Counted from the first letter of the stretch, positions 1,637 to 22,541 are shown. The stretch: DNA of 64,000 nucleotides from a virus (IMGVR_UViG_3300027983_000011:5938-69937); one strand, 5' to 3'. Numbers and translations are program-made. The notes: generated from the letters alone by a model not told the origin.

Positions 1637-2836
1637 ATGTTCAAGTCAACCAAATATCGCTTATACCCAAACAAAGAACAAAAGGTTCTTTTGGATAAGC
1701 ATTTTGGATGCGTAAGATTTATCTACAATTTTGGATTGGAATTAAAAAATAAAACATATCAAGAGACAGGAAAATCTATTTCCAGATATGAAATTCAAGC
1801 TAAAATTCCAATTCTCAAAAAGGAAAAAGGATTTCTAAAAGACGTAAATTCATTATCTCTACAAGCCTCACTTGTCAATTTAGATAATGCGTTTTCAAAA
1901 TTCTTCAAAAAGACCGCCGATTATCCGAATTTCAAATCCAAACATATATCGCGGGATTCATTTCAAGTGGTTCAAAATGTAAAAGTAATCGGTAATAAAT
2001 TATTTATTCCAAAATTCAAACAAGGAATTGAGGTTGTTATATCCCGTCCGATAATCGGAGAAATAAAGACTTGCACTGTTTCTAAATCGCCCTCTGGAAA
2101 ATATTTCATTTCAATTTTGACTGACACCGGTATTGAAATTCCTACCCAACTTCCACTAAATTTAGATAAATCTATTGGGTTGGATGTTGGGATAAAAACA
2201 TTTGTTACATTATCAACCGGAGAAAAAATTGATAATCCAAAATGGATTTCAAAATCTGCTAAAAAACTGCATAGACAACAGAGAATTATGTCTCGTAGAA
2301 ATAAACAGTCAAAACGTAGAGATAAACAAAGACAAATAGTTGCTGTCATTCACGAGAAAATAGCAAACCAAAGAAAAGACTTTCATCATAAAATAAGTAA
2401 AAATATCGTTGACGAGAACCAAGTCATTTGTATTGAAGACCTTTCTATAAAAAATATGATTAAAAATAGGAGACTGTCAAAAGCAATCTCCGATTGTGGA
2501 TGGGGACAATTCTTGTCTTTCATTCAATACAAAGCAAAATGGAAAGGTCATACTATCATAAAAATAGGAAGATTCGAACCATCATCGAAGATGTGCTCAT
2601 GCGGCAAAATAAATAACAATCTAAAACAGTCCGATAGAACATGGAAATGTTCTTGTGGATTGGAACATGATAGAGATATATTAGCAGCAAATAACATCAA
2701 GAAATTTGCTTTGTTGAAACCAAACTTTGTAGGGCAGGAACTGCCCGAAATTACGCTCGGGGAGAGTGGCAATATCATTAAAAATGATCTAAAATGCTGC
2801 TCAACGAACCGAGAATCCGTTAGGTCTTTAGCCTAG
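1637..2836 (+). CDS. tnpB: RNA-guided endonuclease TnpB
   Basis: KYRLYPNKEQ HTH, RuvC I GLDVGIK, RuvC II IEDL, zinc finger CSCG...CSCG, RuvC III HDRDILAANNI. Confidence 0.95.
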   Translation: MFKSTKYRLYPNKEQKVLLDKHFGCVRFIYNFGLELKNKTYQETGKSISRYEIQAKIPILKKEKGFLKDVNSLSLQASLVNLDNAFSKFFKKTADYPNFKSKHISRDSFQVVQNVKVIGNKLFIPKFKQGIEVVISRPIIGEIKTCTVSKSPSGKYFISILTDTGIEIPTQLPLNLDKSIGLDVGIKTFVTLSTGEKIDNPKWISKSAKKLHRQQRIMSRRNKQSKRRDKQRQIVAVIHEKIANQRKDFHHKISKNIVDENQVICIEDLSIKNMIKNRRLSKAISDCGWGQFLSFIQYKAKWKGHTIIKIGRFEPSSKMCSCGKINNNLKQSDRTWKCSCGLEHDRDILAANNIKKFALLKPNFVGQELPEITLGESGNIIKNDLKCCSTNRESVRSLA

Positions 2837-2847
2837 CGGTAGTTCAA

Positions 2848-3196
2848 TTTCTTTTCCCTTTAATACTCTTTCTACAGTGTCCTTATCATCGACAACGGGA
2901 ACGCCATTTTTTAATAAAATGTCTTGTATTTTCCCGGAGACCTCGGAAAAATAACCCACCATGCCGAGTAATTCTATTTTGTGTCTAATTATAGAACGAA
3001 TTGCCTCTTTCGAACCATCATGTGCAGTTGCCACAAACTTTTTTCCTGCGTGGGTATGCTTGATAACACCAACCGCGTCTGGCAGTTCATCGGAATTGAC
3101 ATCTATAACTTCATAATCGTTTTTTGGATTCTCCACATCTTTTGGAGATTTGAAATTTGGATGCCCGCCGACTGATTTATACGTTCTATTGTCAAG
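2848..3196 (-). pseudogene. 5' part of IS-disrupted conserved phage hypothetical gene, also lacking its original start
   Basis: Frame is open from a TAA at 3197-3199 (LDNRTYKSVGGHPNFKSPKDVENPK...) with no ATG before the GTG at 3136; continues at 1165 after the IS. Confidence 0.65.
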
Positions 3197-5373: not shown

Positions 5374-5559
5374 TCAACTATTTAAACCCATTGTATGAAA
5401 GAATGGGATAATTAAATCGTTGTCGGTCTTCGCATAAATGATATATTTTCCATCGATTATAGATTCTTCCGTGCTCACGATTTTTATATCATCAAAGAAG
5501 GTTTCTGGCAGTTTATCTAAATCGATAAATATTGCCGCTTGTTTTTCCTCATCATTCAT
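5374..5559 (-). CDS. Hypothetical protein
   Basis: 61 aa ORF abutting the upstream ORF. Confidence 0.45.
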   Translation of the reverse strand: MNDEEKQAAIFIDLDKLPETFFDDIKIVSTEESIIDGKYIIYAKTDNDLIIPFFHTMGLNS

Positions 5560-5853
5560 TTAATTTTTTTCGTTTTCTATAACTTTTTTGATTTTAGAAG
5601 AAGCTACCGTTTCTTTATTTGGTTTGTATACCCTCTTCATTTTCCAACCACTCCTGTTATCTAACTCAAAATAAAATATTGTAGCTTTATTTGACAGTCT
5701 CGAAATTGTCGCACCGACAAAATTATTTGATCCATACGCCAGAGGCGTGCTCATAGTTGAGTCGAACAATGAGTAAGTGCTCGCACTTAGTTTAAAATGA
5801 AAAAATAAATCTTCTGTCAGTTCAATCTTTTTTGGATATGGTGGTGGTCGCAT
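5560..5853 (-). CDS. Hypothetical protein
   Basis: 97 aa ORF with sense TATTTATA 3 nt before the ATG. Confidence 0.55.
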   Translation of the reverse strand: MRPPPYPKKIELTEDLFFHFKLSASTYSLFDSTMSTPLAYGSNNFVGATISRLSNKATIFYFELDNRSGWKMKRVYKPNKETVASSKIKKVIENEKN

Positions 5854-5867
5854 GTGTATAAATATAA

Positions 5868-5897
5868 AAGGCCGGCGACTTTGAAGTCGCCGGCCTT
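5868..5897 (-). terminator. Intrinsic terminator
   Basis: Perfect inverted repeat AAGGCCGGCGACTT-TG-AAGTCGCCGGCCTT, T-run on the minus strand, after the rIIA-rIIB-HTH genes. Confidence 0.8.
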
Positions 5898-5919
5898 GTG
5901 AAGAACCCCTTCTTCTTAA

Positions 5920-7546: not shown

Positions 7547-9724
7547 TCAACTGTTTTTATCGATGAAGTTAATAATGCTGGCCACACTAGCGGCACTGCT
7601 ATGATAATTGTTAACAATATCAAATATCCCCATATACTTCGTGGTGATATCCTTAGCAACATCGCCAATATCATCGACAAACGTGGCTGATTTCTCAGCT
7701 TTAATTCCGAAGACTTGTGCTATAATATCATCTTTTCCAACAACTTGTTCAAAGTTTTGAGATTTTTCAAGACGCCGGAATTTTTCTACAGTATCCTTAT
7801 TATCGATATTGGAAATAATATCTTGCCTACTGCATCGGCTGGCTAGATCAGAATACTTCCGACATTCTGGCAGATACGTATTTTTAATATACAACTGATG
7901 AGCAAAATGAGCCGTCTTTTTATCAATGTTCTTTTTGACTAGATCGATGACATTGACCCACGTACCGGTCTTGAGCATAAAAACGTTTTTACGGTTGATT
8001 CCGTAGATTTCCGCTTTTGCATCAATGAGTTTATGTTCAACGGCATACTTGAAAAGGCAGGTGATTTGGCGCTTGGAAAGCTCCTTGGTTTTATACGTCA
8101 CATCAGAATAATAAAAATCAACATAATAATACGACTTTGTAGAAGAGACCGTCAGTGCCCGATGATCCCAATATTCAAAGTCCATATTATAGAAGTGAAT
8201 TCCATCTGTCTTGGAAGTCGTCGGCGACCGAGGAGCGCGTGGTGGCTTCGGCAACGATTCAATCTCAACCATTTGGCTTGCGTCCCACCCAAAAAACTTG
8301 GCATGGGCCTTAAAAACTTGCCCGCCGACCGATTGGTCTGAGATGATGTAAATTTGTGGATGATCACCACCCGGATAATTTGTTTTAATCCAGTTCCGAA
8401 TACGGGCCCGCTTGATATTATCACCAAACGTGTATAAGAATACAGTTCCATACACATCGTCACTTTGTTCTGCGATATAATGACCACTACCAACTTTACG
8501 AAACTTCGCAGTGACTCGGTTGAAATCGTATTGCTCTACTTTGAAGAATCCATAGTGTTCCTCAAATCTCTTTCCCGTCGGCAAGGAGTCGGCAATGCCC
8601 GATGAACGGTGGACCTCAGACACGTTACAGCTGTAGTAGGTGACATCTTTGTTACCAAATTTAATACCAACACCACCAATAATGTTAGTTATAAAATGGA
8701 GAGGACTGTTATAAGAATTGTATCGCTTGTATAGCTCCATACCGTTCCAAACACTCTTGGGCTTCTCAACCGATTTTAGCGCCAACTCTTTTAGTTCATC
8801 ATAAGCGACAAGAGCAGCAGCGATAACGGCCTTTTGAGTTTTTTGGTCGGCATCATACTGCAATTGTTCCTTGTTGGGAGCCACTTCAAGGTCGCCGATA
8901 TTGAAATATAATTCAAACGAACCATCTCCGAGACAGGTGTTGATCTTCTGATAATCAGGATTTCCATATTTATCGCCGGTAAATAGAGCACTAACATTGA
9001 TGGGATATGAATAATTTCCCATGTAGGCGTAGCTCTGATTGCTGTGTCGTTGTGAACTCTTTCGAAGCGCCCAATTCTTTCCTTCGAAATGGTATTCAAC
9101 CTTTTCATAGACGATACTCGCCCCAGTAATTATGGGACGAAAACGAAAAGGGGCGTACGCTTGGCGAATTTTGTCAACGAACATCGCAATGTCCCCCGAC
9201 TTCACTGCGAACTTAACTTCTACACCATTGTGCTCCTTCGTCATTTCAGTAGCAAACTGTAAAATATTTGGAGAGCCGGTCTCATCAATGAAACAGTTAT
9301 AGACATACTTGATTCCGTTGTAATATGAAATTACCGAAAAGTTCTCAGTATAATTGAAAGGTGTCTTCGACCCAAGACCCATACAACCATCAGAATCATT
9401 GTCGTCTGTCTTGGTGCTCTCAAAATATGTGGTATAAATTTGTTCAATTGCCTTAGGCGACAAACCGGTTCCAAAATCACGAATTGAGAACCATGGTTCC
9501 AATGTGTTAGGGGCGTGGACCTCAAACATACGATCGGTATTTTCTGCATCTACGTGACTGTCCCACGCGTTAGCACCAAGTTCACGCGGAATGGCGAGGA
9601 TGGGTTCAGAGTAAAATCCACTTAGAATTTTGAACGCCTTAGCGCTGGCTTTAATCTTAAACTTGGAAGGAGTCAGCCCAGCACTTGTGAAGACCGGCTT
9701 GGAGGTTTCTTGCGTAATAATCAT
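7547..9724 (-). CDS. rIIA: rIIA-like GHKL ATPase protein
   Basis: RELGANAWDSH, IRDFGTGL, YTTYFESTK, GCMGLGSKTPF GHKL motifs. Confidence 0.87.
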   Translation of the reverse strand: MIITQETSKPVFTSAGLTPSKFKIKASAKAFKILSGFYSEPILAIPRELGANAWDSHVDAENTDRMFEVHAPNTLEPWFSIRDFGTGLSPKAIEQIYTTYFESTKTDDNDSDGCMGLGSKTPFNYTENFSVISYYNGIKYVYNCFIDETGSPNILQFATEMTKEHNGVEVKFAVKSGDIAMFVDKIRQAYAPFRFRPIITGASIVYEKVEYHFEGKNWALRKSSQRHSNQSYAYMGNYSYPINVSALFTGDKYGNPDYQKINTCLGDGSFELYFNIGDLEVAPNKEQLQYDADQKTQKAVIAAALVAYDELKELALKSVEKPKSVWNGMELYKRYNSYNSPLHFITNIIGGVGIKFGNKDVTYYSCNVSEVHRSSGIADSLPTGKRFEEHYGFFKVEQYDFNRVTAKFRKVGSGHYIAEQSDDVYGTVFLYTFGDNIKRARIRNWIKTNYPGGDHPQIYIISDQSVGGQVFKAHAKFFGWDASQMVEIESLPKPPRAPRSPTTSKTDGIHFYNMDFEYWDHRALTVSSTKSYYYVDFYYSDVTYKTKELSKRQITCLFKYAVEHKLIDAKAEIYGINRKNVFMLKTGTWVNVIDLVKKNIDKKTAHFAHQLYIKNTYLPECRKYSDLASRCSRQDIISNIDNKDTVEKFRRLEKSQNFEQVVGKDDIIAQVFGIKAEKSATFVDDIGDVAKDITTKYMGIFDIVNNYHSSAASVASIINFIDKNS

Positions 9725-9784
9725 TTTTTAATAGTTAATTAGATTTAGGGGTTTAATTGAATAAGACTTAACAATAGGCATGTG

Positions 9785-9807: not shown

Positions 9808-11853
9808 TTAACGATTTAGAAATTTTTTATTCATCGTGTGAGCAATTTCCATAACATTATTAATATCAATGATTAAGGCATCTTTACCATACATTTTTTT
9901 AAATGCTAGTGTGTTGACTGTAGAACGTCTTTTATCACCAAGTCCATCATTTTCAAGGTAATAACTAATAATTTGGACTCCGTTTTTTCTAAGGTAATCG
10001 ACTTGTTTTTTGGTGTGGCTCCACGCTTCTTCACCTCTATAACTTCCGCCGCCGAAATAGGGTTCGCCGTCGGACAGATTAACAAAAAAGCAATCGAGTT
10101 CGGGTGTTGCTCTTGGAAGATAATCCAAGATAGCTTCGAAAGCCAATCCTTCTGGAGTTGTTCCAGAACAGTTGAGTGAAGGAAACAATTGAATGATTTT
10201 ACTAAATTTATCTTTGCGTGAATCGTAAGCAATAAGAATGTAGGGATTTTCCGACTTCCCAAACTCTCCAACTGAACTACGAAATGAGATGGTGACGTCT
10301 AAATTCTTTACCATTGAAGCCGCCTTGGCCATAGCAACCACGGATGTTAAAGTTTTTCCCCACGCGCTCGACATCGAAGTGGAAGCATCAACGGAAATGT
10401 GCATGTGGGTGTTTTTATACTTATCTTCAGCGGTTTTATAAAATATTTGTTCAGAACCAAAGCCCAAATCAGCGATTAGTCGCTTTTCAATCCGCCCACC
10501 GTTTTGCCGTGTAAACCGTGTAACATGTGAGTCATTGCGTATCTGTAACTTTCGTCCCAACATTCTTCCAAGACGAACGCCATCCAACACCGATTTTTCG
10601 TGCTGATTTTTTAGAAGGGTTGTGTGTGAAGAGTATGGAAAATTTTCATCCTCAATCAGTTGTTTCGTGAAATTTTTCACAAGAATGCAATCAACGATAG
10701 GAACACCAAAATCGCCGCCGACTGGAATAAGTTCAATATCACTATTGTCCAGCGACTCAAGTTTTTTAATAACTTCATCTGAAAATGATTTATGTTGAGG
10801 ATTTCCATCTATCAAATCATCTTGTTCCTGAATTTTCTTTTTGACACGATTAATCTGTTCTTTCGTCAGGTCATCGGACGACTCATCTTCTTCTGCCTCA
10901 CCCTTTAATTCGTCCTGTTTTGAAATTGTATCAACATGTTCGCTCTCACCATTTTCTCCGCCAATAACATCATCTACATCATCTGCGTCATTTTTGTCTA
11001 TATCATCGGTAGGCGATATTTCGTCGGAAGATTTCTCTCCAGAATCACTTCCATCAGAGTCGCCCTTTTGCGGCTTTTTGTCTTCTTTCTTTTTCGGAGA
11101 ATTGTCTTCCTCTACAATCGCCTCCAAAACGATTGTAGCAATCTCACACGCAAGTTCGAGTCGGTCTTTTGGAGTAGAGAGTCGAAGAATGTTATCTAAG
11201 TCTAATTTTTCGTAAATCTCTTCAAGCCGAGGCAAAGCGTCTAGTGGAGATTCCGGATTAGTAATATTGATGATGCGAAATTTATAATTTCTGAGGGTTG
11301 GTTTTCTGGCAAAACCTTTGGACAGAAGTCCCTTGGTAACTTCCGGATCATTAAAGTAGCGGTTGTATAACGCAACATAATATCCGCGATATCCCGGAGC
11401 CGTTTTAAACGCCCAAGCGTCAATGTATCTATCTTCAACGTAGTTAAGCATCTTCTTTGTGAAAGTGTTAATATCTGTTTTTGACATCTTCTTCTGTCCA
11501 GCCAAATAAACAGAGTTTGGAATCTTTCCCCAAAAATTTACTAACATGGCAAAGTCGGATTTTACAATGTGGGAACCTTCGTGTAAAGCAAGGCCGACTG
11601 TTGAATCGATGTGGCCGCGGGAGAGTTCTCCGCCGATGTTAATAGATTTACCATCAGTGGACGATGTGGTTTTCTCCGCAAATTTTACCGGAATCTTTTC
11701 TCCAGTCAAAATCATTACAAAGTTGGAAATGGCACGGCGACAAGCTGACAATCGAATTAAATCTAACTGTGTGGGCTTCTTACCATCGAATTCAAAATCG
11801 TCATCAAGCCAGAATTTTGAATTTTCTGAGTCGGTTTTTTTGTTTCGTGACAT
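9808..11853 (-). CDS. VWA-domain protein with N-terminal HEXXH region (MoxR partner, CobT-like)
   Basis: LALHEGSH and NYVEDRYID; acidic linker; MIDAS VDASTSM...GTTPEG...LSDGEP. Confidence 0.75.
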   Translation of the reverse strand: MSRNKKTDSENSKFWLDDDFEFDGKKPTQLDLIRLSACRRAISNFVMILTGEKIPVKFAEKTTSSTDGKSINIGGELSRGHIDSTVGLALHEGSHIVKSDFAMLVNFWGKIPNSVYLAGQKKMSKTDINTFTKKMLNYVEDRYIDAWAFKTAPGYRGYYVALYNRYFNDPEVTKGLLSKGFARKPTLRNYKFRIINITNPESPLDALPRLEEIYEKLDLDNILRLSTPKDRLELACEIATIVLEAIVEEDNSPKKKEDKKPQKGDSDGSDSGEKSSDEISPTDDIDKNDADDVDDVIGGENGESEHVDTISKQDELKGEAEEDESSDDLTKEQINRVKKKIQEQDDLIDGNPQHKSFSDEVIKKLESLDNSDIELIPVGGDFGVPIVDCILVKNFTKQLIEDENFPYSSHTTLLKNQHEKSVLDGVRLGRMLGRKLQIRNDSHVTRFTRQNGGRIEKRLIADLGFGSEQIFYKTAEDKYKNTHMHISVDASTSMSSAWGKTLTSVVAMAKAASMVKNLDVTISFRSSVGEFGKSENPYILIAYDSRKDKFSKIIQLFPSLNCSGTTPEGLAFEAILDYLPRATPELDCFFVNLSDGEPYFGGGSYRGEEAWSHTKKQVDYLRKNGVQIISYYLENDGLGDKRRSTVNTLAFKKMYGKDALIIDINNVMEIAHTMNKKFLNR

Positions 11854-11855
11854 AA

Positions 11856-12809
11856 TCAGTATGGTGGACTATCATCGTCTGCCTTAACCTTTCTTGTCCC
11901 AAATGGGTTTGACGCAGTGACGTTGACAATGTACTTTTGAACAGCCTGTTTAATCAACGTTCTCTCACTATCGATTCCACCCGAATCGTCGAAATCGGGA
12001 TAGACCACAGCTTCCATAATATTTAGAAGAGAAAATCCATCAACAGCCATTCCGGCCATCTCAACCGCTGCTCGTGTTGAAATAGATTTGCTTAACTGGT
12101 CATCTTTTTCCATTTTACGAGAATCTGTTGTAACACCAGCGATAGCATCAATTAGGGCATCCTCAGCGGATGGATAAATCATTCTCAGTAACGCCTTTTC
12201 TTGTTCCTCAGTCAATGTATCCATCTCAATTTTAACCTGAAAACGGTCAAGCAGCGCTCGGTCCATAACCCGCGTTGCTGTATAATCACTACCAATATTT
12301 GCTGTTGCTATAAAAGAAACGCCTTCGGCAACCCTTACAATCTCAGAACCCTGTTTCTCATCCAACCTCAAATACCGTTGTAGTTCATCAAGAACGGGTA
12401 CAAGGATGTTCCAAGCCTCAGGATGACCTCTGGAAAGCTCGTCCAGTAAAATCACTGCGTTGGGTGTCTTGATTGCTTTGACGAACGCACTTTCGTCAAA
12501 AAAGGTGCCATCTGCCTTGCTGAAGTGTGTGTTGCCAATCAAAGCTGCTCGGGGGTCTTGAGTCGCACCCATGTTGATATAAAAATATTTGTCTTCCCGT
12601 CCCAAGGATTTCACAAGTGACTGTGCAGCAAGGGTTTTTCCGCTTCCAGTCGGACCGACCAAAAGAATATTTTTTCCACGTAACCCACTGCGTACCAAAT
12701 ATTTCCACTTGAGTTCACTGATAATTAACTTTTCTGGCTTAAATTTATACGATTCTTTAATCGCTTCGGAAATATCCTCATAGTCTGAAAGTGATTTTGA
12801 TTTACTCAT
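11856..12809 (-). CDS. MoxR/CbbQ/CobS-like AAA+ ATPase
   Basis: GPTGSGKT, ILLDELSR, IATAN, MDRALLDRF, ISTR. Start placed at ATG 12809, just downstream of the -10 box. Confidence 0.85.
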   Translation of the reverse strand: MSKSKSLSDYEDISEAIKESYKFKPEKLIISELKWKYLVRSGLRGKNILLVGPTGSGKTLAAQSLVKSLGREDKYFYINMGATQDPRAALIGNTHFSKADGTFFDESAFVKAIKTPNAVILLDELSRGHPEAWNILVPVLDELQRYLRLDEKQGSEIVRVAEGVSFIATANIGSDYTATRVMDRALLDRFQVKIEMDTLTEEQEKALLRMIYPSAEDALIDAIAGVTTDSRKMEKDDQLSKSISTRAAVEMAGMAVDGFSLLNIMEAVVYPDFDDSGGIDSERTLIKQAVQKYIVNVTASNPFGTRKVKADDDSPPY

Positions 12810-12828
12810 AACTTCACGATACATACTT

Positions 12829-13520: not shown

Positions 13521-14294
13521 TTATTTACGAATAGTCCAAGCGTCAGCTGCTAGATTTGGGTTGGATATGTAAGAAAATGGCATTTTAAAATATCCATTTT
13601 GCCCCCAACCTTCGCCCCAGCTATTTCTAACTAAAAGCTGACCATCTGAAATATTGTAACCAACTGCACACACCGCGTGCCCACCTAGAAATGTTTCGTT
13701 CGGTTTTGGAAGTTCGAGAATTCCCGTTTTAGCAACATTCGGACCTTCAAATTCTGTGTAGACAGAGAATCCAAACACAAAGGGAAAACCCGCTGCCAAA
13801 CACGCCAACATGTCTGGCAACGAATTTAAGCGAGCATACTCAGTAATCTTGTGAGTCTTAGCTGCTTCATAACAATTCGCCAATGGTTTAATCTTAAATT
13901 TGTTAATGTCATAGTCCCACAACCGTTCGTCACATGTTCCGTGAGTTGCTAAAGCCTGTATCGTTGAGCGTAATGACGCTCCACTGTCAACTTCAATATT
14001 TCCTTCAATTTCCCGTGTGTTGTAGTACACAAACAATCGACTAAAATTCTCACAATCTGTTTCCATACTTTCATCTAAAATTTCAAGATACTCCAAAGCT
14101 CCAACAACAGAATTTGCTGTACATGAACCGAGAGTAGACTGATTCTCCACAGTAGAGCATTTCCCCCGTAAATCAATTTGATTTGGAATCGTCGATAAAT
14201 TTTTAGGCACACCAACTGTTAAGACTCTATCACGAGAGTCAGCTATATCAGGTTTCCAACCGTATTTTGAATTTTTCTTAGAGTGATGTGTCAT
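13521..14294 (-). CDS. Papain-like C1 cysteine protease
   Basis: NQSTLGSCTAN, GGHAVCAVGY, VRNSWGEGWGQNGYF. Confidence 0.92.
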   Translation of the reverse strand: MTHHSKKNSKYGWKPDIADSRDRVLTVGVPKNLSTIPNQIDLRGKCSTVENQSTLGSCTANSVVGALEYLEILDESMETDCENFSRLFVYYNTREIEGNIEVDSGASLRSTIQALATHGTCDERLWDYDINKFKIKPLANCYEAAKTHKITEYARLNSLPDMLACLAAGFPFVFGFSVYTEFEGPNVAKTGILELPKPNETFLGGHAVCAVGYNISDGQLLVRNSWGEGWGQNGYFKMPFSYISNPNLAADAWTIRK

Positions 14295-15943: not shown

Positions 15944-16744
15944 TTATACAAAAAATGCCTCTGCCGTGTTAGGGTCAAAGTCTTTTGGATTTACAAATAC
16001 TTCTGAAATTTCATCCGAATGAACATCCTGTTTCGGATATGGGTAAGTTTTGTGCTTTAGGTTCTCCATTATCTTTTTTCTCTCTTTACCCTTTAACAAG
16101 ATGTAAATGTAGCGGTGTTTTGAGGATTCCTTTTTTCTCCAAAATGTGTGGCCAATAGCTTCCTTTAAGTGGTCAACATTATGACTACCATATCTTTCTG
16201 AAACAGTTCGGCTATGAATCCACTCATATGGATTACGTGTAAGGGACACGCTGTAGTTTGGCATAAGGGCTAATTGTGAGTTTCCTTGGTATAACCAATT
16301 GGTACTCTGATATATAATACCCGTGTGTCCAGCTTCATTGTCAGCATAGCTCAATAGTGCTTTGATTTTTGGTCGGTTCTGACGTAACCAGTGAAAGCTT
16401 TGGCCGATGCAGTAGCTCTCCATATTCTTTGCATTGGGTATATCGGCTATCCACAGTCTGACAAGTTCATAAACCTCATTGATATTAAGGCTTTCGGAGA
16501 TTGATGCTGCAGCAGACCGCCCAACGGGATTCCCATAAATGAGACACCCAATCAATTTTTCCGTGTCGTTTTCAAAAAAACTGGATTCACTCGGTTCTTG
16601 TTTTAAAAATACACCTAAGGCCACCGAACACAAACTCCACTTGTGGGAATAATGGTTCTTAACAATTATATCTTTAGCGATGAGATGATTAATCTCCCGT
16701 AGGAATATTTTAGATGTATCTACGAACGAAATAGAGTTGCTCAT
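15944..16744 (-). CDS. Mom-like GNAT DNA-modification protein
   Basis: KNHYSH, YELVRLWI, ESYCIGQS, LLSYAD..AGHTGIIYQSTNWLYQG, KHRYIY. Confidence 0.72.
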   Translation of the reverse strand: MSNSISFVDTSKIFLREINHLIAKDIIVKNHYSHKWSLCSVALGVFLKQEPSESSFFENDTEKLIGCLIYGNPVGRSAAASISESLNINEVYELVRLWIADIPNAKNMESYCIGQSFHWLRQNRPKIKALLSYADNEAGHTGIIYQSTNWLYQGNSQLALMPNYSVSLTRNPYEWIHSRTVSERYGSHNVDHLKEAIGHTFWRKKESSKHRYIYILLKGKERKKIMENLKHKTYPYPKQDVHSDEISEVFVNPKDFDPNTAEAFFV

Positions 16745-16779
16745 TTAATAACCCACAATACAAAATGTAGGTCACAATG

Positions 16780-17316
16780 TCAACGCTTAAAATTCAAAAT
16801 TTGCTTTTCTGAGAATTGGATATTTCTTACCAATTCAAATAACACTACGAAGCCGAGGTTCCCGAAAAGAGATTTGATATAAAATACCCACGCCGGTGTA
16901 TATTGTGGCATGCCATAAACCACCGCGTTGAACCATTCATGTATTCCGTTTCCGTAGATTGGATTAATCGACCACGCAAATGTACTTGTCAACAGAAAAT
17001 ACGATGTCGTCGCAACAAATGTCTTTAGAATTAAATTCATCTGTTTTAATCTTCCAAGACAGTGTATTGAATATAAAAATAACATCATGAACATCATGTT
17101 CCAGCCAACCATGGGCATATTATAGTGCCAATTAATGACGCAATCGGAAATAATATAACCTATAAGTGGAATATGAACATAATTGGTTAATTCTTTTCGA
17201 AAGCATAAAAACAATGCAAACAGCGGCGTCACGTTAAGAAGGATATCATATTCAATTCCGGCGAGCCGGAAAAGAACAACAAATGCGGTAAGGAGTAGGG
17301 GGAATGTGTATTTCAT
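16780..17316 (-). CDS. DUF6580-like membrane protein (BtuM/ECF S-component-like putative transporter)
   Basis: Several hydrophobic helices; FRL...NVTPLFAL, ISD, YFLLTSTFAW, PIY, GMPQYTPAWVFYIKSLFGNL parallel the DUF6580 pattern. Confidence 0.6.
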   Translation of the reverse strand: MKYTFPLLLTAFVVLFRLAGIEYDILLNVTPLFALFLCFRKELTNYVHIPLIGYIISDCVINWHYNMPMVGWNMMFMMLFLYSIHCLGRLKQMNLILKTFVATTSYFLLTSTFAWSINPIYGNGIHEWFNAVVYGMPQYTPAWVFYIKSLFGNLGFVVLFELVRNIQFSEKQILNFKR

Positions 17317-17501
17317 ATTTCAAATTCTAGTTGACCCGTTTTTAACATCGTTTCTATAAACGGAAAGCATAATTGACACATTGTACCGCAACCGGTTTCT
17401 TCACGGATTTCTTGTAGAGTTGTTAGATTTTTTTGGTCGGCCATAATTTTTAATTTATCAAAAGTTGTATCGAAACACACACACATATTTATCGTACTCA
17501 T
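17313..17501 (-). CDS. BFD-like [2Fe-2S] ferredoxin
   Basis: C-X-C-X32-C-X2-C (CVC...GCGTMCQLC); ATG overlaps the nrdJ stop (TAATG). Confidence 0.78.
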   Translation of the reverse strand: MSTINMCVCFDTTFDKLKIMADQKNLTTLQEIREETGCGTMCQLCFPFIETMLKTGQLEFEI

Positions 17502-18547
17502 TATTTGATAGGACATGCCCCTCCGGCACATTCAACGTCGAGACTCTCCGAACCAATGTCATGTTTTATGGTTGATATCGGCTTAACGTTTTTTGAGAGC
17601 TCTTTGTATTTTTCTTCAGTAATTTCTTCGTATGGGGCTTGGCGAAATCCGTGTCCAGAATGAAGAAGGAAGCTGACCGATTTAAGACTGGTCTCGTAAT
17701 TCTTCTTCATCCAGTCTTTGATGTCAGTCAATTCCTCTTCCTTATAATAAATGGTAACAGAGACAGCATTATCGGCCCAAATGGTTTGTAATTTTTTAAC
17801 AAGTTCAAGTTGGTTTATCGCTCCCATGTCATTTGCTAAAATAGCATTTTTCCCATCAGCACATGGAAATTCGACAACCACATTCTCTCGGTCAAGAGTT
17901 CCATCTAATCGAACGAGATATTCAATATTATAACCAAGTTCTTTACAAATCGGAATCAGTTTATCGCCAGAGCCCATTTGGACTCGACGAATGTAGTAGT
18001 TGGCGAAGGCCGGATGGCCGCCTGGTGTGGAGCCAGCCAATAAACTTAACGTTCCAGAAGGCTTTACTGTTGTGAGTTTAATACTAACAGGATAGCCACA
18101 GGCCTTGCTCCATTCAGCATCATACTTACGAAGTTCCTTATAGCAGTTATCCAACCAATCGAGCTTATCCATAGACTGACAGACTCCTGTTACGCCAAGA
18201 CCGATTCTCATATTCTTTTTAACAATCGCTTTTGTTTTTTCATAGTGAAATGGTAGAGTCCAAATAGCTTTTTGTGTCTTGTAAAGAAGTTTGGCGCATT
18301 CGTTCAATTCTTCTTGTGATGTAATGTTGTTTAAATACAATTCACATAGGTTACAAGCTTCACCATCTCCCAAAGTAATTTCTGCGCAGTTATGAACTAA
18401 CACATCGTTCGCAAAAAAGTTTTCGTTTTTCGCGACCGTTATATCATACACATCAGCGTTTTCAACAACTCTAATGCTTTTGATTTTTATACGTTTATAG
18501 GGTAAGTCCGTATTTTCTACGCGTTCTGTTTGATTAGTTGTTTCCAT
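17501..18547 (-). CDS. nrdJ: Class II (B12-dependent) ribonucleotide reductase, C-terminal half with split-intein IntC (18389-18547)
   Basis: VYDITV..NENFFANDVLVHN|CAEITL..CNLCE, TTVKPSGTLSLLAG, C-terminal CAGGACPIK. Confidence 0.93.
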   Translation of the reverse strand: METTNQTERVENTDLPYKRIKIKSIRVVENADVYDITVAKNENFFANDVLVHNCAEITLGDGEACNLCELYLNNITSQEELNECAKLLYKTQKAIWTLPFHYEKTKAIVKKNMRIGLGVTGVCQSMDKLDWLDNCYKELRKYDAEWSKACGYPVSIKLTTVKPSGTLSLLAGSTPGGHPAFANYYIRRVQMGSGDKLIPICKELGYNIEYLVRLDGTLDRENVVVEFPCADGKNAILANDMGAINQLELVKKLQTIWADNAVSVTIYYKEEELTDIKDWMKKNYETSLKSVSFLLHSGHGFRQAPYEEITEEKYKELSKNVKPISTIKHDIGSESLDVECAGGACPIK

Positions 18548-18735
18548 AATTTTAATTCTTTTCTATAGCTGCTTGTGTATGTCTTTATATTATCTATGAC
18601 TATAATTTTTATGTCGGGGTATTCCTTTTTTAGAATATCCACCTTATACAGCCTGTCCTTGAAGTACCCCTTTAATTCGACGATGTATTCTCCTACGGTA
18701 TCCTTTATTGTAAAATCCGTGCGACATTTCTTCAG
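18517..18735 (-). pseudogene. C-terminal remnant of a free-standing PD-(D/E)xK endonuclease between the nrdJ halves
   Basis: Manual translation, no ATG: KKCRTDFTIKDTVGEYIVELKGYFKDRLYKVDILKKEYPDIKIIVID...*; DF...ELKG motif. Confidence 0.65.
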
Positions 18736-20618
18736 ATTATTTTTAGCAAAACGTCATCGGGTGTTAAAATTGAGGCCTTAACATATCCCCTGTTTTCTGT
18801 GTATACAAGATGATTTGGTGTCATCTTTATCGTTGTTCCATCTTCGAGTTCCAGCTCTATGATGTCGGCCTGTTTTCTTGTAAGGTCGCCGGTTTCTATT
18901 GGAGAATTTTCTAAAATTCCTGTTTTTATGTCAAGAGATGAAGCCCACACAATATCTCCATTTTTTACATCTTTGATAACATCTTCAAGTTTTTTATTTC
19001 CGCGAGAAGTGTGTATCAGTGTATCACCTGTTAGACAAGGATTCACGCCTTCACAGTTATCTTTGTTTGTCGGATACATTTTATTATCCTTCATCGGACC
19101 ATCAATCAAGCGTCCAAATTTTTGAGCCAATGGAATATTGATAAATCCATAAGGTTCTCCCTTAGCCATTCCTGTTTCAGCATCTTTCTGATAGCCGGTC
19201 TCCCAAATGTCCCGAGATATTTGATTGAAACTATCAGCATAGATTGAGTTGTTGGATTTATTTCTCCAATTAGGAATGTTTCCATCCGCCCAATTTTTAG
19301 CGCGAATGTAAAGATGGTCATCTGGGTCGCCAATAGCAATCTGAGCAGAATTATGACTTACAATAAATGTATTATTTTCTGGATTCGCTACATAGAAATA
19401 ATTTTTCTCATCAACTTCAATGTCTATAGTTTTAGTCGTGTGAGTATCATATTCAATTTCCACTATTGGAATAAGGTCATAATCTTCAAGATTGAAATCT
19501 TCTAAATTTTTTTCTTTTTTAATCTCATAAGTGTATTTACTTTTTGTTTCGATTACAAGATTTTTAGGTTTTACTAGAAAATCTGTCTCCTTGTTGATTT
19601 CATCTACACTCTTCCATTCCATACCATTTACTTTATTATAAATAAGAAGTCTGTGGTTTTTGGTTGCTGAAAAGGTTTCTCCGTCGATAGTCTTTATGGT
19701 TGATACATTCTGTGTTCCCTGGTCAAATACTGCATTTACTTTTTTATATCCATAAGCGGTTTTAACATTATCCCCAACTTTTATATCTGACAATGCAACA
19801 CTCCCCCTTTCAGTATATACTAGGTAGTTATCAGGCAAACATCTTCTCACATTACCGGCCACCACGACTGAACCAATGATATTATTGATATCGAGTACGT
19901 CAATGGAGCGCAGTTTCTTGCCCTCACGACCTTGTAGAACAGAAATGATTTGTTCGATACCAGTTACCAATATCGTAGGACCGGAAGCGGTTCCACCAAA
20001 TCCAGAAATCTTCTCACCAGACCCACGGACTAAAATTGTAGAATATGTAAATGATTTTCCAGATACAAAAAATGAATCAACCACTTTTCTCAAAAGACTA
20101 ACCCAACCTTCGCGAGAGTCTGGGACAATGAAGTCTGTATCTTTTGTAGATTGGTGTATGACACTGACGCCAGCTTTTACTTTTGGTAATTCGTGAATAT
20201 CAGCCCTCTGAACGGAAAACCCTACTCCGCCGCCTAGCATGAGATTTTCAAATACAAAGCAGAAATCTTCAATATCATTCATGGAGACAAACCAGCAGTT
20301 TAAAAGCGAAGCGCCACCGTAACGAGCCACCGTAGGTGCACCAAGTTGCCACAACATACGTCCGGCAAAATTACACTTTAGATTGAATACCAAGTCGTAT
20401 AGTCGCTCAGCTTCTTCTTTTGTATACTTTGCTCCAATATCTTGGGCACCATTTATACAACGTTCGACTGTCTCAAACCATTCTTCTTTTGTTCCATCGC
20501 CCTTGATGCGTGAATATGTTCGCTTATATACGATATAACCGAGACCATTAAATCCCCAGTCTGGGTTTTTATTTTTATATTTGTTGACGAACGCATCTGA
20601 TAGAATTTTTTCTGACAT
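18732..20618 (-). CDS. nrdJ: Class II ribonucleotide reductase, N-terminal half with contiguous mini-intein (19350-19841) and split-intein IntN (18732-19037)
   Basis: VYKRTYSR, LLNCWF, GGGVGFS, PDSREGW, GNVRR|CLPD...SHN|SAQIA, GVNP|CLTGDT...TPNH. Confidence 0.93.
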   Translation of the reverse strand: MSEKILSDAFVNKYKNKNPDWGFNGLGYIVYKRTYSRIKGDGTKEEWFETVERCINGAQDIGAKYTKEEAERLYDLVFNLKCNFAGRMLWQLGAPTVARYGGASLLNCWFVSMNDIEDFCFVFENLMLGGGVGFSVQRADIHELPKVKAGVSVIHQSTKDTDFIVPDSREGWVSLLRKVVDSFFVSGKSFTYSTILVRGSGEKISGFGGTASGPTILVTGIEQIISVLQGREGKKLRSIDVLDINNIIGSVVVAGNVRRCLPDNYLVYTERGSVALSDIKVGDNVKTAYGYKKVNAVFDQGTQNVSTIKTIDGETFSATKNHRLLIYNKVNGMEWKSVDEINKETDFLVKPKNLVIETKSKYTYEIKKEKNLEDFNLEDYDLIPIVEIEYDTHTTKTIDIEVDEKNYFYVANPENNTFIVSHNSAQIAIGDPDDHLYIRAKNWADGNIPNWRNKSNNSIYADSFNQISRDIWETGYQKDAETGMAKGEPYGFINIPLAQKFGRLIDGPMKDNKMYPTNKDNCEGVNPCLTGDTLIHTSRGNKKLEDVIKDVKNGDIVWASSLDIKTGILENSPIETGDLTRKQADIIELELEDGTTIKMTPNHLVYTENRGYVKASILTPDDVLLKII

Positions 20619-20687: not shown

Positions 20688-21179
20688 TCACAAATCTTTA
20701 TTATTACCAAAGTCGTCTTTACGATATCCTCTCCATTTTGAGCTAAGTTGTTTTTTGACATCATTTTCCCCATCATCGGATTCCATGTTAGATTTTATGT
20801 TGGAAGATTCTGCTGATTTTTCGTCATAAATACGTATATCACCATTGCCCGTGTCCATCTTCGAGTATAAGGTTATACCATCTGGTCCAAAGCGGTTCTT
20901 AATGATGTGCATTCGTGCCGTACTATTAGCCTTATCAGAAATATTTCGTGAAGCGCTCATCACAAAGTCCGCCGTCATAATTTTACGGTAACTGTCGGAA
21001 ACGTTATGTGCCTGAACAATATCTTCGCCTGCGCCGCTATTGTGAGTGTATACGTCATTGGCAAAAAACATATGCGTGTCGGCAACGGTTATGTCGATGG
21101 TTGGCCGGTCGCCCAACAGCTGAATACTCTCAATTTCGTCTAAGATAAAATCTTCGGGGTTTAGGTCATGTTCTTTCAT
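20688..21179 (-). CDS. dnaB: DnaB/gp41 helicase C-terminal half with split-intein IntC (21039-21179)
   Basis: TIDITV..HMFFANDVYTHN|SGAGEDIV...SDSYRKIMTADF...IKNRFGPDG. Confidence 0.9.
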   Translation of the reverse strand: MKEHDLNPEDFILDEIESIQLLGDRPTIDITVADTHMFFANDVYTHNSGAGEDIVQAHNVSDSYRKIMTADFVMSASRNISDKANSTARMHIIKNRFGPDGITLYSKMDTGNGDIRIYDEKSAESSNIKSNMESDDGENDVKKQLSSKWRGYRKDDFGNNKDL

Positions 21180-21215: not shown

Positions 21216-22541
21216 TTACTTTTTAGTAAAAAGTTTATCGCCAACCGATAGGCCGGTCTGAATATTTTTAAAATTTCCATATTGAGTCGGAAACAGATGC
21301 CGTGAAGAGCAGTCGATATATTTTCCACTTTTTAACTTAATTCGATACACTGGTTGGTTTTCTATCGGAAAAATTTTTGTGACAGACTTATATCCGGCGT
21401 GTGTTAATACTTTATCTCCAGAAACTAAATCCCTAGCCTGGATGATTCCTTTCGTATCTACTTGAATATTAGTGTCTAATGAAAAACAGCGATTTGTTTG
21501 TGAGGCGGTCCAGATAGGCACCCCCAACTCACCCGCAATCATACGAAGTTCTTCATAGATTCCACCCATTTCTGAGTAGCTATTAGAATTCTTTTCTTTT
21601 TCAATCGGCCGGAGAATGTCAGCGTAATCAACGATGATAAGGTCTGGTTTAATTCCCTCTAACATAGCAACTCTCTCAAAGTGAAATTTGAGTGATTGAG
21701 CGCTCACCGTTTTGATTGGAAAATATTTCACAAACAACTTTCCTGGTACAGACTTGAGTTTTTCCTTAACTGCGTCAGCGTAATTTTTAACATTTTGAAA
21801 TTGAATTCCTGTAAAACAACAATCATATCGAAGTCCGACATAATTTTCATTCAATTCTAAGGTGTAATGTAGTACATTTTTTCCCTTCAACATTGCAGAT
21901 GCACCGACTCGCGCCAAAAGCCAACTCTTACCAATACCAGCGGGAGCAACAAATACTCCAAGTTCTCCTGGCCCAAGACCCCCGTCGATAAGCGAATCAA
22001 CTACATCCCAGCCAGTTGAAACCGTCTTGCGTGACATTTCACTCATACGTTTGTCAACTTCGATGTGATAGTTGTGGCCGAGATTTCTTTCCATGCCGGC
22101 TTTAAGAGCTTCATCAACTAAATGTTTAACCTTTTCATACTCACCCACCTTAATCAAATCGACCGAATTAATAATCGCTCCCTTTAGTTTTTGATTCTTA
22201 CAAAATTCAAGAAACTGTTCACGAACAAAATCTAAATCCGAATCAGTCAATTTCAAGAACACCGATTTCAAATTGTCAATTACCATAGCCTTCAATATTT
22301 CATTATTGATGGTAGAAATTCTAACCTTGAATACCTGTAACGTTGGAACGGAACTGTATTCAAGATAGTATGAAAACGTCTCTTTCAAAATCCAACGGTG
22401 TGCTTCGTTCTCAAAGGCCTCTGGGTCTGCAATGTCAAGAACTCTTTCTAAGAAAGTTTTTTCTGAAAGGATACCAGCGATGATTTTTGCTTGAAATTCA
22501 AGTCCATACTTGTGTAGATTATCTATAATGATTGGTGACAT
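21216..22541 (-). CDS. dnaB: DnaB/gp41 helicase N-terminal half with split-intein IntN (21216-21488)
   Basis: APAGIGKS, YTLEL, IIVDYADIL, WTASQTNR|CFSLDT...CSSRHLFPT. Confidence 0.92.
   Translation of the reverse strand: MSPIIIDNLHKYGLEFQAKIIAGILSEKTFLERVLDIADPEAFENEAHRWILKETFSYYLEYSSVPTLQVFKVRISTINNEILKAMVIDNLKSVFLKLTDSDLDFVREQFLEFCKNQKLKGAIINSVDLIKVGEYEKVKHLVDEALKAGMERNLGHNYHIEVDKRMSEMSRKTVSTGWDVVDSLIDGGLGPGELGVFVAPAGIGKSWLLARVGASAMLKGKNVLHYTLELNENYVGLRYDCCFTGIQFQNVKNYADAVKEKLKSVPGKLFVKYFPIKTVSAQSLKFHFERVAMLEGIKPDLIIVDYADILRPIEKEKNSNSYSEMGGIYEELRMIAGELGVPIWTASQTNRCFSLDTNIQVDTKGIIQARDLVSGDKVLTHAGYKSVTKIFPIENQPVYRIKLKSGKYIDCSSRHLFPTQYGNFKNIQTGLSVGDKLFTKK

Follow-up and report, generated by a model that had tools for sequence, protein, structure and literature searches.

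BtuM of Thiobacillus denitrificans (PDB 6FFV, 8OVV) is a small importer of cobalamin (vitamin B12) of about 20 kDa, with six helices and the fold of the S-components of energy-coupling factor (ECF) transporters. According to the relevant sections of Rempel et al. (2018, PMC6072759), BtuM was found through B12-related gene neighbourhoods and works without an ECF module. A B12-specific S-component, CbrT, is encoded in Lactobacillus delbrueckii in an nrdJ-cbrS-cbrT-pduO cluster, beside the class II ribonucleotide reductase gene nrdJ; in the growth experiments of the same account, CbrT alone gave no growth and requires an ECF module (Santos et al. 2018, PMC5997447). Bfd of Pseudomonas aeruginosa (PDB 4E6K, 6E6Q-S), a small [2Fe-2S] protein of family PF04324, reduces iron to release it from bacterioferritin. 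Here we analyze a window of 64,000 nucleotides from a virus (IMGVR_UViG_3300027983_000011:5938-69937; "the window" denotes this whole stretch), in which an intein-split class II nrdJ gene is followed on the minus strand, 5' to 3', by a gene for a Bfd-type [2Fe-2S] ferredoxin and then by one for a membrane protein of family DUF6580. The DUF6580 protein has a predicted S-component fold, and bacterial members of its family lie near cobalamin riboswitches; we lean, with some reserve, towards the reading that it is a corrinoid carrier serving NrdJ. The genes in question are the following.

18732-20618, minus strand: N-half of nrdJ, with its stop codon at 18732-18734
17501-18547, minus strand: C-half of nrdJ
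17313..17501, minus strand: Bfd-type [2Fe-2S] ferredoxin (PF04324), 62 residues from the ATG within TAATG, or 57 residues from the ATG at 17486
16780..17316, minus strand: DUF6580 membrane protein (PF20221) of 178 residues, S-component fold predicted (AF2 model, VIA-align), candidate corrinoid carrier

The positions and minus-strand orientation of the three genes agree with an earlier, sequence-only reading of this DNA, as do their junctions. The TAA stop codon of nrdJ (17503-17501) overlaps an ATG (17501-17499) as TAATG, in the frame of the 62-residue ferredoxin, and the TGA of the ferredoxin (17315-17313) overlaps the ATG (17316-17314) of the 178-codon open reading frame (ORF) as ATGA. That reading had further taken all three genes to be translationally coupled; coupling of nrdJ and the ferredoxin through TAATG is possible but not certain, because the ferredoxin called in the protein collection (P0129) is the 57-residue form, which starts from the next ATG (17486), 14 nt past the nrdJ stop. 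No terminator-like site was found on the minus strand from 20618 to 16780. Since phage genes often overlap at their stop and start codons, the stronger argument against chance is the recurrence of the trio in a second contig, described below.

The DUF6580 protein matches PF20221 with an E-value of 1.6e-09 (38.7 bits against a cut-off of 27; residues 5-160 on positions 9-148 of the 162-position profile), and with 39.2 bits in a six-frame search of the whole record; it has no match in PHROGs or NCBIfam. Four close phage-type homologues with 45-52% identity were found in a collection of 5.8 billion proteins, and an exhaustive search of 1.84 billion representatives (a 50%-identity library) returned 116 matches at E <= 0.001, mostly of 185-205 residues. 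The family alignment used throughout consists of 75 of these 116, chosen for near-full length and including the phage protein. R17, Y121, G135 and F145 are invariant in the 75 sequences and all four are kept by the phage protein, which also keeps P31, A34, D58 and F156; the phage clade departs from the family at N111S, G127E and Q130N.

An AlphaFold (AF2) model built on this alignment (pLDDT 94.2, pTM 0.86) contains six long, membrane-length helices and a short outer helix, in keeping with the polytopic membrane protein that had been read from the sequence. Among 48,161 chains compared with VIA-align, BtuM with hydroxocobalamin (8ovv_A) comes first (Z 11.3, rmsd 3.7 A, 156 of 175 residues, 13% identity), and rows 2-9 are all ECF S-components (HmpT-type, CbiM, RibU, BioY and FolT; Z 8.4-9.7); the nine best rows align 140-156 residues, and row ten is a designed nanocage. 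In the ESM Atlas, the nearest clusters are DUF6580 proteins of Verrucomicrobiota, Pseudomonadota and Acidobacteriota, and the structural neighbours include ECF S-component, ABC_cobalt (TM 0.62) and CbiM (TM 0.59) clusters. A second VIA look at the PDB gave only ThiT above Z 5. From the model and these comparisons we accept a predicted ECF S-component fold for the DUF6580 protein. The first rank of BtuM among the structures is suggestive only, because the tool warns that helical bundles with Z below about 13 may share a common arrangement and nothing more.

The link of the family to B12 comes from its bacterial members. A genome scan gave 80 DUF6580 loci, nearly all from metagenome-assembled genomes (MAGs) of Verrucomicrobiota, and Rfam was run on 23 of them, picked for their full 6-kb flanks before any result. 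A cobalamin riboswitch (RF00174) lies within 6 kb of DUF6580 at ten of these 23 Verrucomicrobiota loci (5/11 and 5/12). As a control, five whole genomes (4.5-7.6 Mb) were found to contain 1, 1, 1, 2 and 1 detected cobalamin riboswitches, the single riboswitch of two of them being the one at DUF6580, and by chance a riboswitch would be expected in well under 1% of 12.5-kb loci. At two of these ten loci, riboswitch and DUF6580 share a strand, with the riboswitch about 2 kb upstream. One locus (L017) carries a riboswitch, a DUF4465 gene (E 1.6e-54) and DUF6580 in this order on one strand, and DUF4465 is named as a B12-binding domain family in the part of PMC13398666 that treats it. The 47 ORFs of the ten riboswitch loci include N_methyl, SIS_2, PEP-CTERM and A24 peptidase matches besides the one DUF4465; no TonB receptor is among these 47, which come from a crude picking of ORFs (longest frames, one strand, high GC) by which genes may be missed. 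We note that four of five DUF6580-bearing Verrucomicrobiota genomes have no match to EcfT/CbiQ (PF02361), which makes it plausible that DUF6580 proteins, like BtuM, act alone.

The trio itself is kept in a second phage. In L002, a metagenome contig of 3 kb, nrdJ is free of inteins and is followed, after a gap of 139 nt, by a DUF6580 gene (51% identical to that of the window), a Bfd gene and a Mom gene; the Bfd gene overlaps the 3' end of DUF6580, so that the order of the two is reversed relative to the window. DUF6580 is thus clustered with nrdJ in both phages, two genes behind it in the window and as the first called gene behind it in L002. A 57-codon ORF (L002 1483-1656), which has no counterpart in the window, bridges the gap between nrdJ and DUF6580. 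A third phage with the pairing is probable, since the longest contig is 3,653 bp both for a further Bfd homologue, P0133, and for P0121, a DUF6580 fragment of the P0003 cluster.

The 62-residue ferredoxin carries the [2Fe-2S] motif C-X-C-X32-C-X2-C that the sequence-only reading had pointed out (C7-x-C9-x32-C42-x2-C45), and matches PF04324 (Fer2_BFD) with an E-value of 4.3e-08 (33.8 bits against a cut-off of 26). Its four cluster cysteines are in register with those of the P. aeruginosa Bfd chains (E 0.01), and a fifth cysteine (C38) is kept together with the four ligands in all four phage-type ferredoxins; the window and L002 proteins are 40% identical. For the ferredoxin, tblastn found no match in GenBank phages, PHROGs gave none, and the large protein collection returned only the window's own ferredoxin, and two more with a two-sequence profile. 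The fold family and the four ligand positions are those of Bfd, and the phage ferredoxin differs from it in its coupling to nrdJ and DUF6580 and in the fifth conserved cysteine. The window is part (64 kb) of an IMG/VR virus record of 69.9 kb with an estimated completeness of about 30% (CheckV); about 70% of the phage genome lies outside the fragment, and absences from it are therefore weak. A further difference from Bfd is that no bacterioferritin is in view in the phage fragment, in which no search was aimed at bacterioferritin. Complex prediction for DUF6580 and the ferredoxin returned "no answer" (score 0.00 against a mark of 0.32), which speaks neither for nor against binding.

In the reading that we favor, the phage would co-express two proteins: its adenosylcobalamin-dependent ribonucleotide-triphosphate reductase (RTPR) and a solitary inner-membrane carrier of the S-component type that transports cobalamin or related corrinoids. 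Uptake of B12 by infected cells would rise during the period in which phage DNA synthesis relies on it. The carrier would act without an ECF energizing module, like BtuM; its substrate would be a corrinoid, and outer-membrane uptake and the adenosyltransferase of the host would complete the path to adenosylcobalamin. Judged from its gene position, the ferredoxin is most likely a one-electron carrier serving this carrier and NrdJ pathway. Its candidate tasks would be the one-electron reduction of the imported Co(III) corrinoid on the way to adenosylation, or help in the release of the corrinoid from the carrier; the former seems to us the most sensible role. That the ferredoxin is the dedicated redox partner of the carrier, a proposal drawn from the same gene position, is doubtful.

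The L. delbrueckii cluster provides published precedent for a carrier beside nrdJ, in that a B12-specific S-component gene is clustered with class II nrdJ there as well. The two differ in that the place of cbrS and of the adenosyltransferase gene pduO is taken in the phage by a gene for a Bfd-type ferredoxin, and in that CbrT depends on an ECF module whereas the phage fragment is without EcfT. BtuM, for its part, is proteobacterial and has no ferredoxin partner, unlike the phage protein. Enhanced B12 uptake has been the subject of speculation for RTPR-carrying marine phages, in the passage of PMC10547690 devoted to them.

By analogy, a wider scheme can be drawn, which we regard as speculative and on balance unlikely. 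The phage would be self-sufficient in its B12 supply, through a two-part system of an undescribed kind: a solitary DUF6580 carrier would import Co(III) corrinoids, and a dedicated ferredoxin, either docked on this carrier or acting at the next step, would reduce the cobalt, thereby releasing the cofactor and priming its adenosylation. The parallel is with Bfd, which reduces the iron of bacterioferritin to release it. On this scheme, the inner-membrane importers of B12 would include, next to BtuCD and BtuM/CbrT, a third and widespread family, DUF6580, and phages would adjust the vitamin economy of their hosts to run a B12-dependent reductase.

A considerable number of observations weigh against a corrinoid carrier that serves NrdJ. 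In addition to the caution on Z values given above, Foldseek found nothing in the PDB at E <= 0.001 (best ThiT, E 3). The sequence-only reading had spoken of a BtuM/DUF6580-like transporter; the S-component fold with BtuM as its best solved match stands, whereas membership in one family is not supported. With the profile of the 75 DUF6580 sequences, no chain of BtuM is recovered from the PDB sequences up to an E-value of 10, and no cysteine lies between model helices 48-64 and 72-87 (loop 3) in any of the five phage-clade proteins. For the BtuM family, as defined by a search from BtuM, an invariant Cys80 of loop 3 is stated to ligate the cobalt in the corresponding section of Rempel et al. (2018, PMC6072759). 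Where a BtuM-type loop 3 begins, the phage clade has an invariant His64-Tyr65 instead, and the sole widely conserved cysteine of DUF6580 is C38 (57/75 sequences), which precedes a charged stretch (40-47) and by the positive-inside rule would lie on the cytoplasmic side of the model. The sole PDB sequence match of the profile is a marginal one (E 0.065, 16.1 bits, profile positions 4-124), to a 182-residue chain named "Membrane protein" (6fnp_A); from its size and its paper this chain should be CbrT, 6FNP being presented as the B12 transporter ECF-CbrT in PMC5997447.

The distribution of the genes likewise counts against it. DUF6580 (hmmsearch) or the Bfd motif was found within 5 kb at none of 22 IMG/VR loci with a related nrdJ, three of them at 63-67% identity, and both genes are missing from the two GenBank phages with a related nrdJ, which makes 0/24 phage loci overall. 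The trio, whose co-occurrence the sequence-only reading had proposed to check, is thus kept in L002 but rare, and the shared descent of two related phages could explain the shared neighbourhood. Among GenBank phages (50,697 records), tblastn with the phage protein and with a bacterial homologue (P0018) gave no DUF6580 relative; pattern scans of IMG/VR with the phage-clade and Verrucomicrobiota alignments gave none either, although these used narrow peptide patterns by which absence is not shown. On the bacterial side, RTPR-type nrdJ lies within 6 kb at none of the 80 Verrucomicrobiota DUF6580 loci, and no convincing Bfd motif was found near bacterial DUF6580 genes. Homologues distributed independently of nrdJ had been named beforehand as grounds for rejection, and the bacterial ones are so distributed; since they adjoin B12 riboswitches instead, we do not count this independence against a B12 role. 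At eight of the ten riboswitch loci, however, the riboswitch sits immediately upstream on the other strand and faces away, so that DUF6580 is not under the switch. The 64-kb window contains no Rfam family at gathering score and hence no cobalamin riboswitch, and the 70-kb fragment has no TonB-dependent receptor or btuB, no PduO or CobA adenosyltransferase and no EcfT. DUF6580 is also without mention in the literature searched.

The operons behind the divergent riboswitches encode PEP-CTERM and N-methyl (pilin-like) proteins without a known B12 family, which are possibly undescribed surface proteins of B12 capture. All eight divergent loci (L009, L010, L011, L014, L021, L026, L036 and L038; riboswitch at about 5500-5900, minus strand) are from Chthoniobacterales MAGs.

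Taken together, the proposal that the phage brings its own B12 importer is supported by the S-component fold, by the B12 link of the family and by the neighbourhood in L002; it is weakened by the distance of DUF6580 from BtuM in sequence and by the rarity of the module. Among the alternatives, the one that survives best holds that descent, or insertion at a recombination-prone site, has placed the three genes side by side without their acting together, the ferredoxin freeing iron from host bacterioferritin and the membrane protein having another role in the envelope of the infected cell. We consider this unlikely, while granting it real weight. It would account for the fact that the ferredoxin aligns best with bacterioferritin-associated ferredoxins, with four of four ligand cysteines, and that its homologue P0133 is so named in one source; the close nrdJ relatives of three IMG/VR phages (L083-L085), like the 24 loci as a whole, are without both genes, the position behind nrdJ is variable, being taken by a zinc-ribbon protein in L083, and the context comes from two related phages only. 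Yet the Bfd and DUF6580 genes adjoin and overlap in both phages despite their reversed order, and given the lack of a Bfd-like gene near bacterial DUF6580, the pairing should have arisen, and been kept, in a phage lineage beside nrdJ. The DUF6580 family has its own link to B12, and a class II ribonucleotide reductase needs no iron. In L083, the zinc-ribbon protein has 352 residues and stands where the window has Bfd and DUF6580.

A corrinoid carrier must also be weighed against the possibility that DUF6580 carries another substrate of the B12 regulon, such as cobalt ions or a corrinoid precursor, by which the phage would boost B12 synthesis or remodelling in the host and not import. Cobalamin riboswitches also control cobalt transporters, and the structural matches extend to S-components for cobalt (CbiM 4m5c, Z 9.0, and 5x3x, Z 8.7; the ABC_cobalt and CbiM clusters of the Atlas). 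We nevertheless find this quite improbable: BtuM leads the next match by 1.6 Z units, the gene that separates DUF6580 from the riboswitch in L017 belongs to the B12-binding family DUF4465, and the making of B12 from cobalt takes about 30 host enzymes, which is slow for a lytic cycle.

Finally, a direct role of the ferredoxin as the electron donor of the reductase, in place of thioredoxin or glutaredoxin and with an incidental membrane protein, is suggested by its gene lying directly behind nrdJ, by the lack of any thioredoxin or glutaredoxin match in the 70-kb fragment and by the [2Fe-2S] ferredoxin YfaE of the E. coli nrdAB operon, but is very hard to credit, as the partner of YfaE is the di-iron subunit found in class I but not in class II enzymes, and NrdJ keeps the Cys-x4-Cys tail of RTPR-type enzymes, which is reduced by dithiol proteins in two-electron steps and for which a one-electron [2Fe-2S] protein is not a direct source. 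With this dithiol-type tail kept, and with DUF6580 between nrdJ and the ferredoxin in L002, so that the two do not adjoin there, a role of the ferredoxin as NrdJ reductant is unlikely.

Natural waters are poor in B12, and the DNA precursors of many aquatic phages are made by a B12-dependent reductase. A carrier gene within the reductase operon would, if the reading of DUF6580 as a corrinoid carrier is correct, be a direct answer to how such phages secure their cofactor; it would also give DUF6580 its first function, and Bfd-type ferredoxins a new role. An S-component-type B12 carrier clustered with nrdJ is of a known kind, and what is new is the phage version with an uncharacterized carrier family and a Bfd-type ferredoxin. 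We found no description of a phage module of nrdJ, Bfd and DUF6580 in the literature on phage cobalamin, nrdJ and auxiliary metabolic genes, and nothing related to a phage ribonucleotide reductase with a bacterioferritin-associated ferredoxin. Matches to the permease BtuC are listed among the putative auxiliary genes of P2-like prophages in a section of PMC13100340.

The nrdJ gene of the window is interrupted twice. The boundaries between exteins and inteins were set by comparison with the intein-free NrdJ of L002 and L083, and the gene is composed, in order of translation, of the following segments.

19842..20618, minus strand: extein segment 1, residues 1-259 of the N-half ORF (PF17975 RNR_Alpha, E 4.9e-23; PF21995 RNR-II_ins_dom, E 5.8e-11; TIGR02505 RTPR, E 3.7e-48)
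19350..19841, minus strand: contiguous mini-intein of 164 residues, with Intein_splicing, Hint_2 and Vint matches, starting with Cys, ending in His-Asn and followed by Ser
19038..19349, minus strand: extein segment 2, residues 424-527, collinear with the NrdJ of L002 and L083
18735..19037, minus strand: N part of a split intein, 101 residues, which ends the N-half ORF (TIGR01445 intein_Nterm, E 1.4e-13; Hint, E 3.4e-10)
18548..18731: spacer of 184 nt between the nrdJ halves
18389..18547, minus strand: C part of the split intein, 53 residues, with His-Asn before the +1 Cys (TIGR01443 intein_Cterm, E 3.9e-08; Intein_splicing, E 5.8e-09)
17504..18388, minus strand: C extein, 295 residues, starting with Cys (TIGR02505 RTPR, E 6.9e-52; phrog_367, E 9.1e-64), with the TAA at 17501-17503

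Scored separately, the N-half reaches 164.2 bits on TIGR02505, the model of monomeric RTPR (model positions 10-280), and the C-half 176.6 bits (483-724), each below the cut-off of 340 bits because the gene is split; the C-half also matches Ribonuc_red_lgC (E 1.3e-12). The exteins add up to 658 residues, compared to 644 in the intact homologue of L083, and end in the C-terminal Cys-x4-Cys tail seen in RTPR-type enzymes. The C extein is 63-67% identical to the NrdJ of the three IMG/VR phages L083-L085, and the C part of NrdJ is 52% identical to that of a spring-water Caudoviricetes genome and 47% to that of Maribacter phage Panino. Neither of the two intein sites is occupied in L002 or L083. A split intein is likewise present in the DnaB-type helicase encoded beside nrdJ by two ORFs (20688-21179 and 21216-22541): the former ends Hint-like and the latter starts intein-C-like, so that two neighbouring genes carry split inteins, and only the larger of the two helicase ORFs has a Pfam match (DnaB_C). 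In L083, a gene of the IMP dehydrogenase / GMP reductase type (7550-9763) carries a large intein with a Hint domain of the homing-endonuclease type.

Downstream of the trio, two further features were located.

16755..16783, minus strand: promoter-like site TTGACA-17-TATTGT, overlapping the DUF6580 stop, with 10 of 12 consensus positions; weak, as equally frequent in shuffled sequence
15944..16744, minus strand: Mom-like DNA-modification gene (PF25680 Mom, E 4.1e-46; phrog_1384), given as context only

To judge from its location, the promoter-like site probably drives the Mom-like gene and would mark the end of the unit of nrdJ, Bfd and DUF6580. A Mom-like gene comes after the trio in both phages (in L002 as ORF 2339-3052).

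The replication genes of the virus are T4-like and include a gp32-like protein, a RecA/UvsX-like protein, a 5'-3' exonuclease and the DnaB-type helicase. Its nearest cultured relatives are distant, RecA being 44.5% identical to that of Microcystis phage Mel-JY01. DNA nearly identical to the record is present in three sequencing runs labelled freshwater metagenome, which are possibly its source, and pieces of it occur in one estuary run of another study; no RNA run is among the sequencing runs listed for this near-identical DNA.

Elsewhere in the window, positions 9808-12824 encode an AAA_5 (MoxR-like) ATPase followed by a 681-residue protein without a Pfam or NCBIfam match. The ATPase (11856-12824) was considered as a CobS-like cobalt chelatase subunit, which was rejected as no CobS model matched. 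At 13521-14294 the phage encodes a cysteine protease of the papain family (PF00112, E 2.5e-15).

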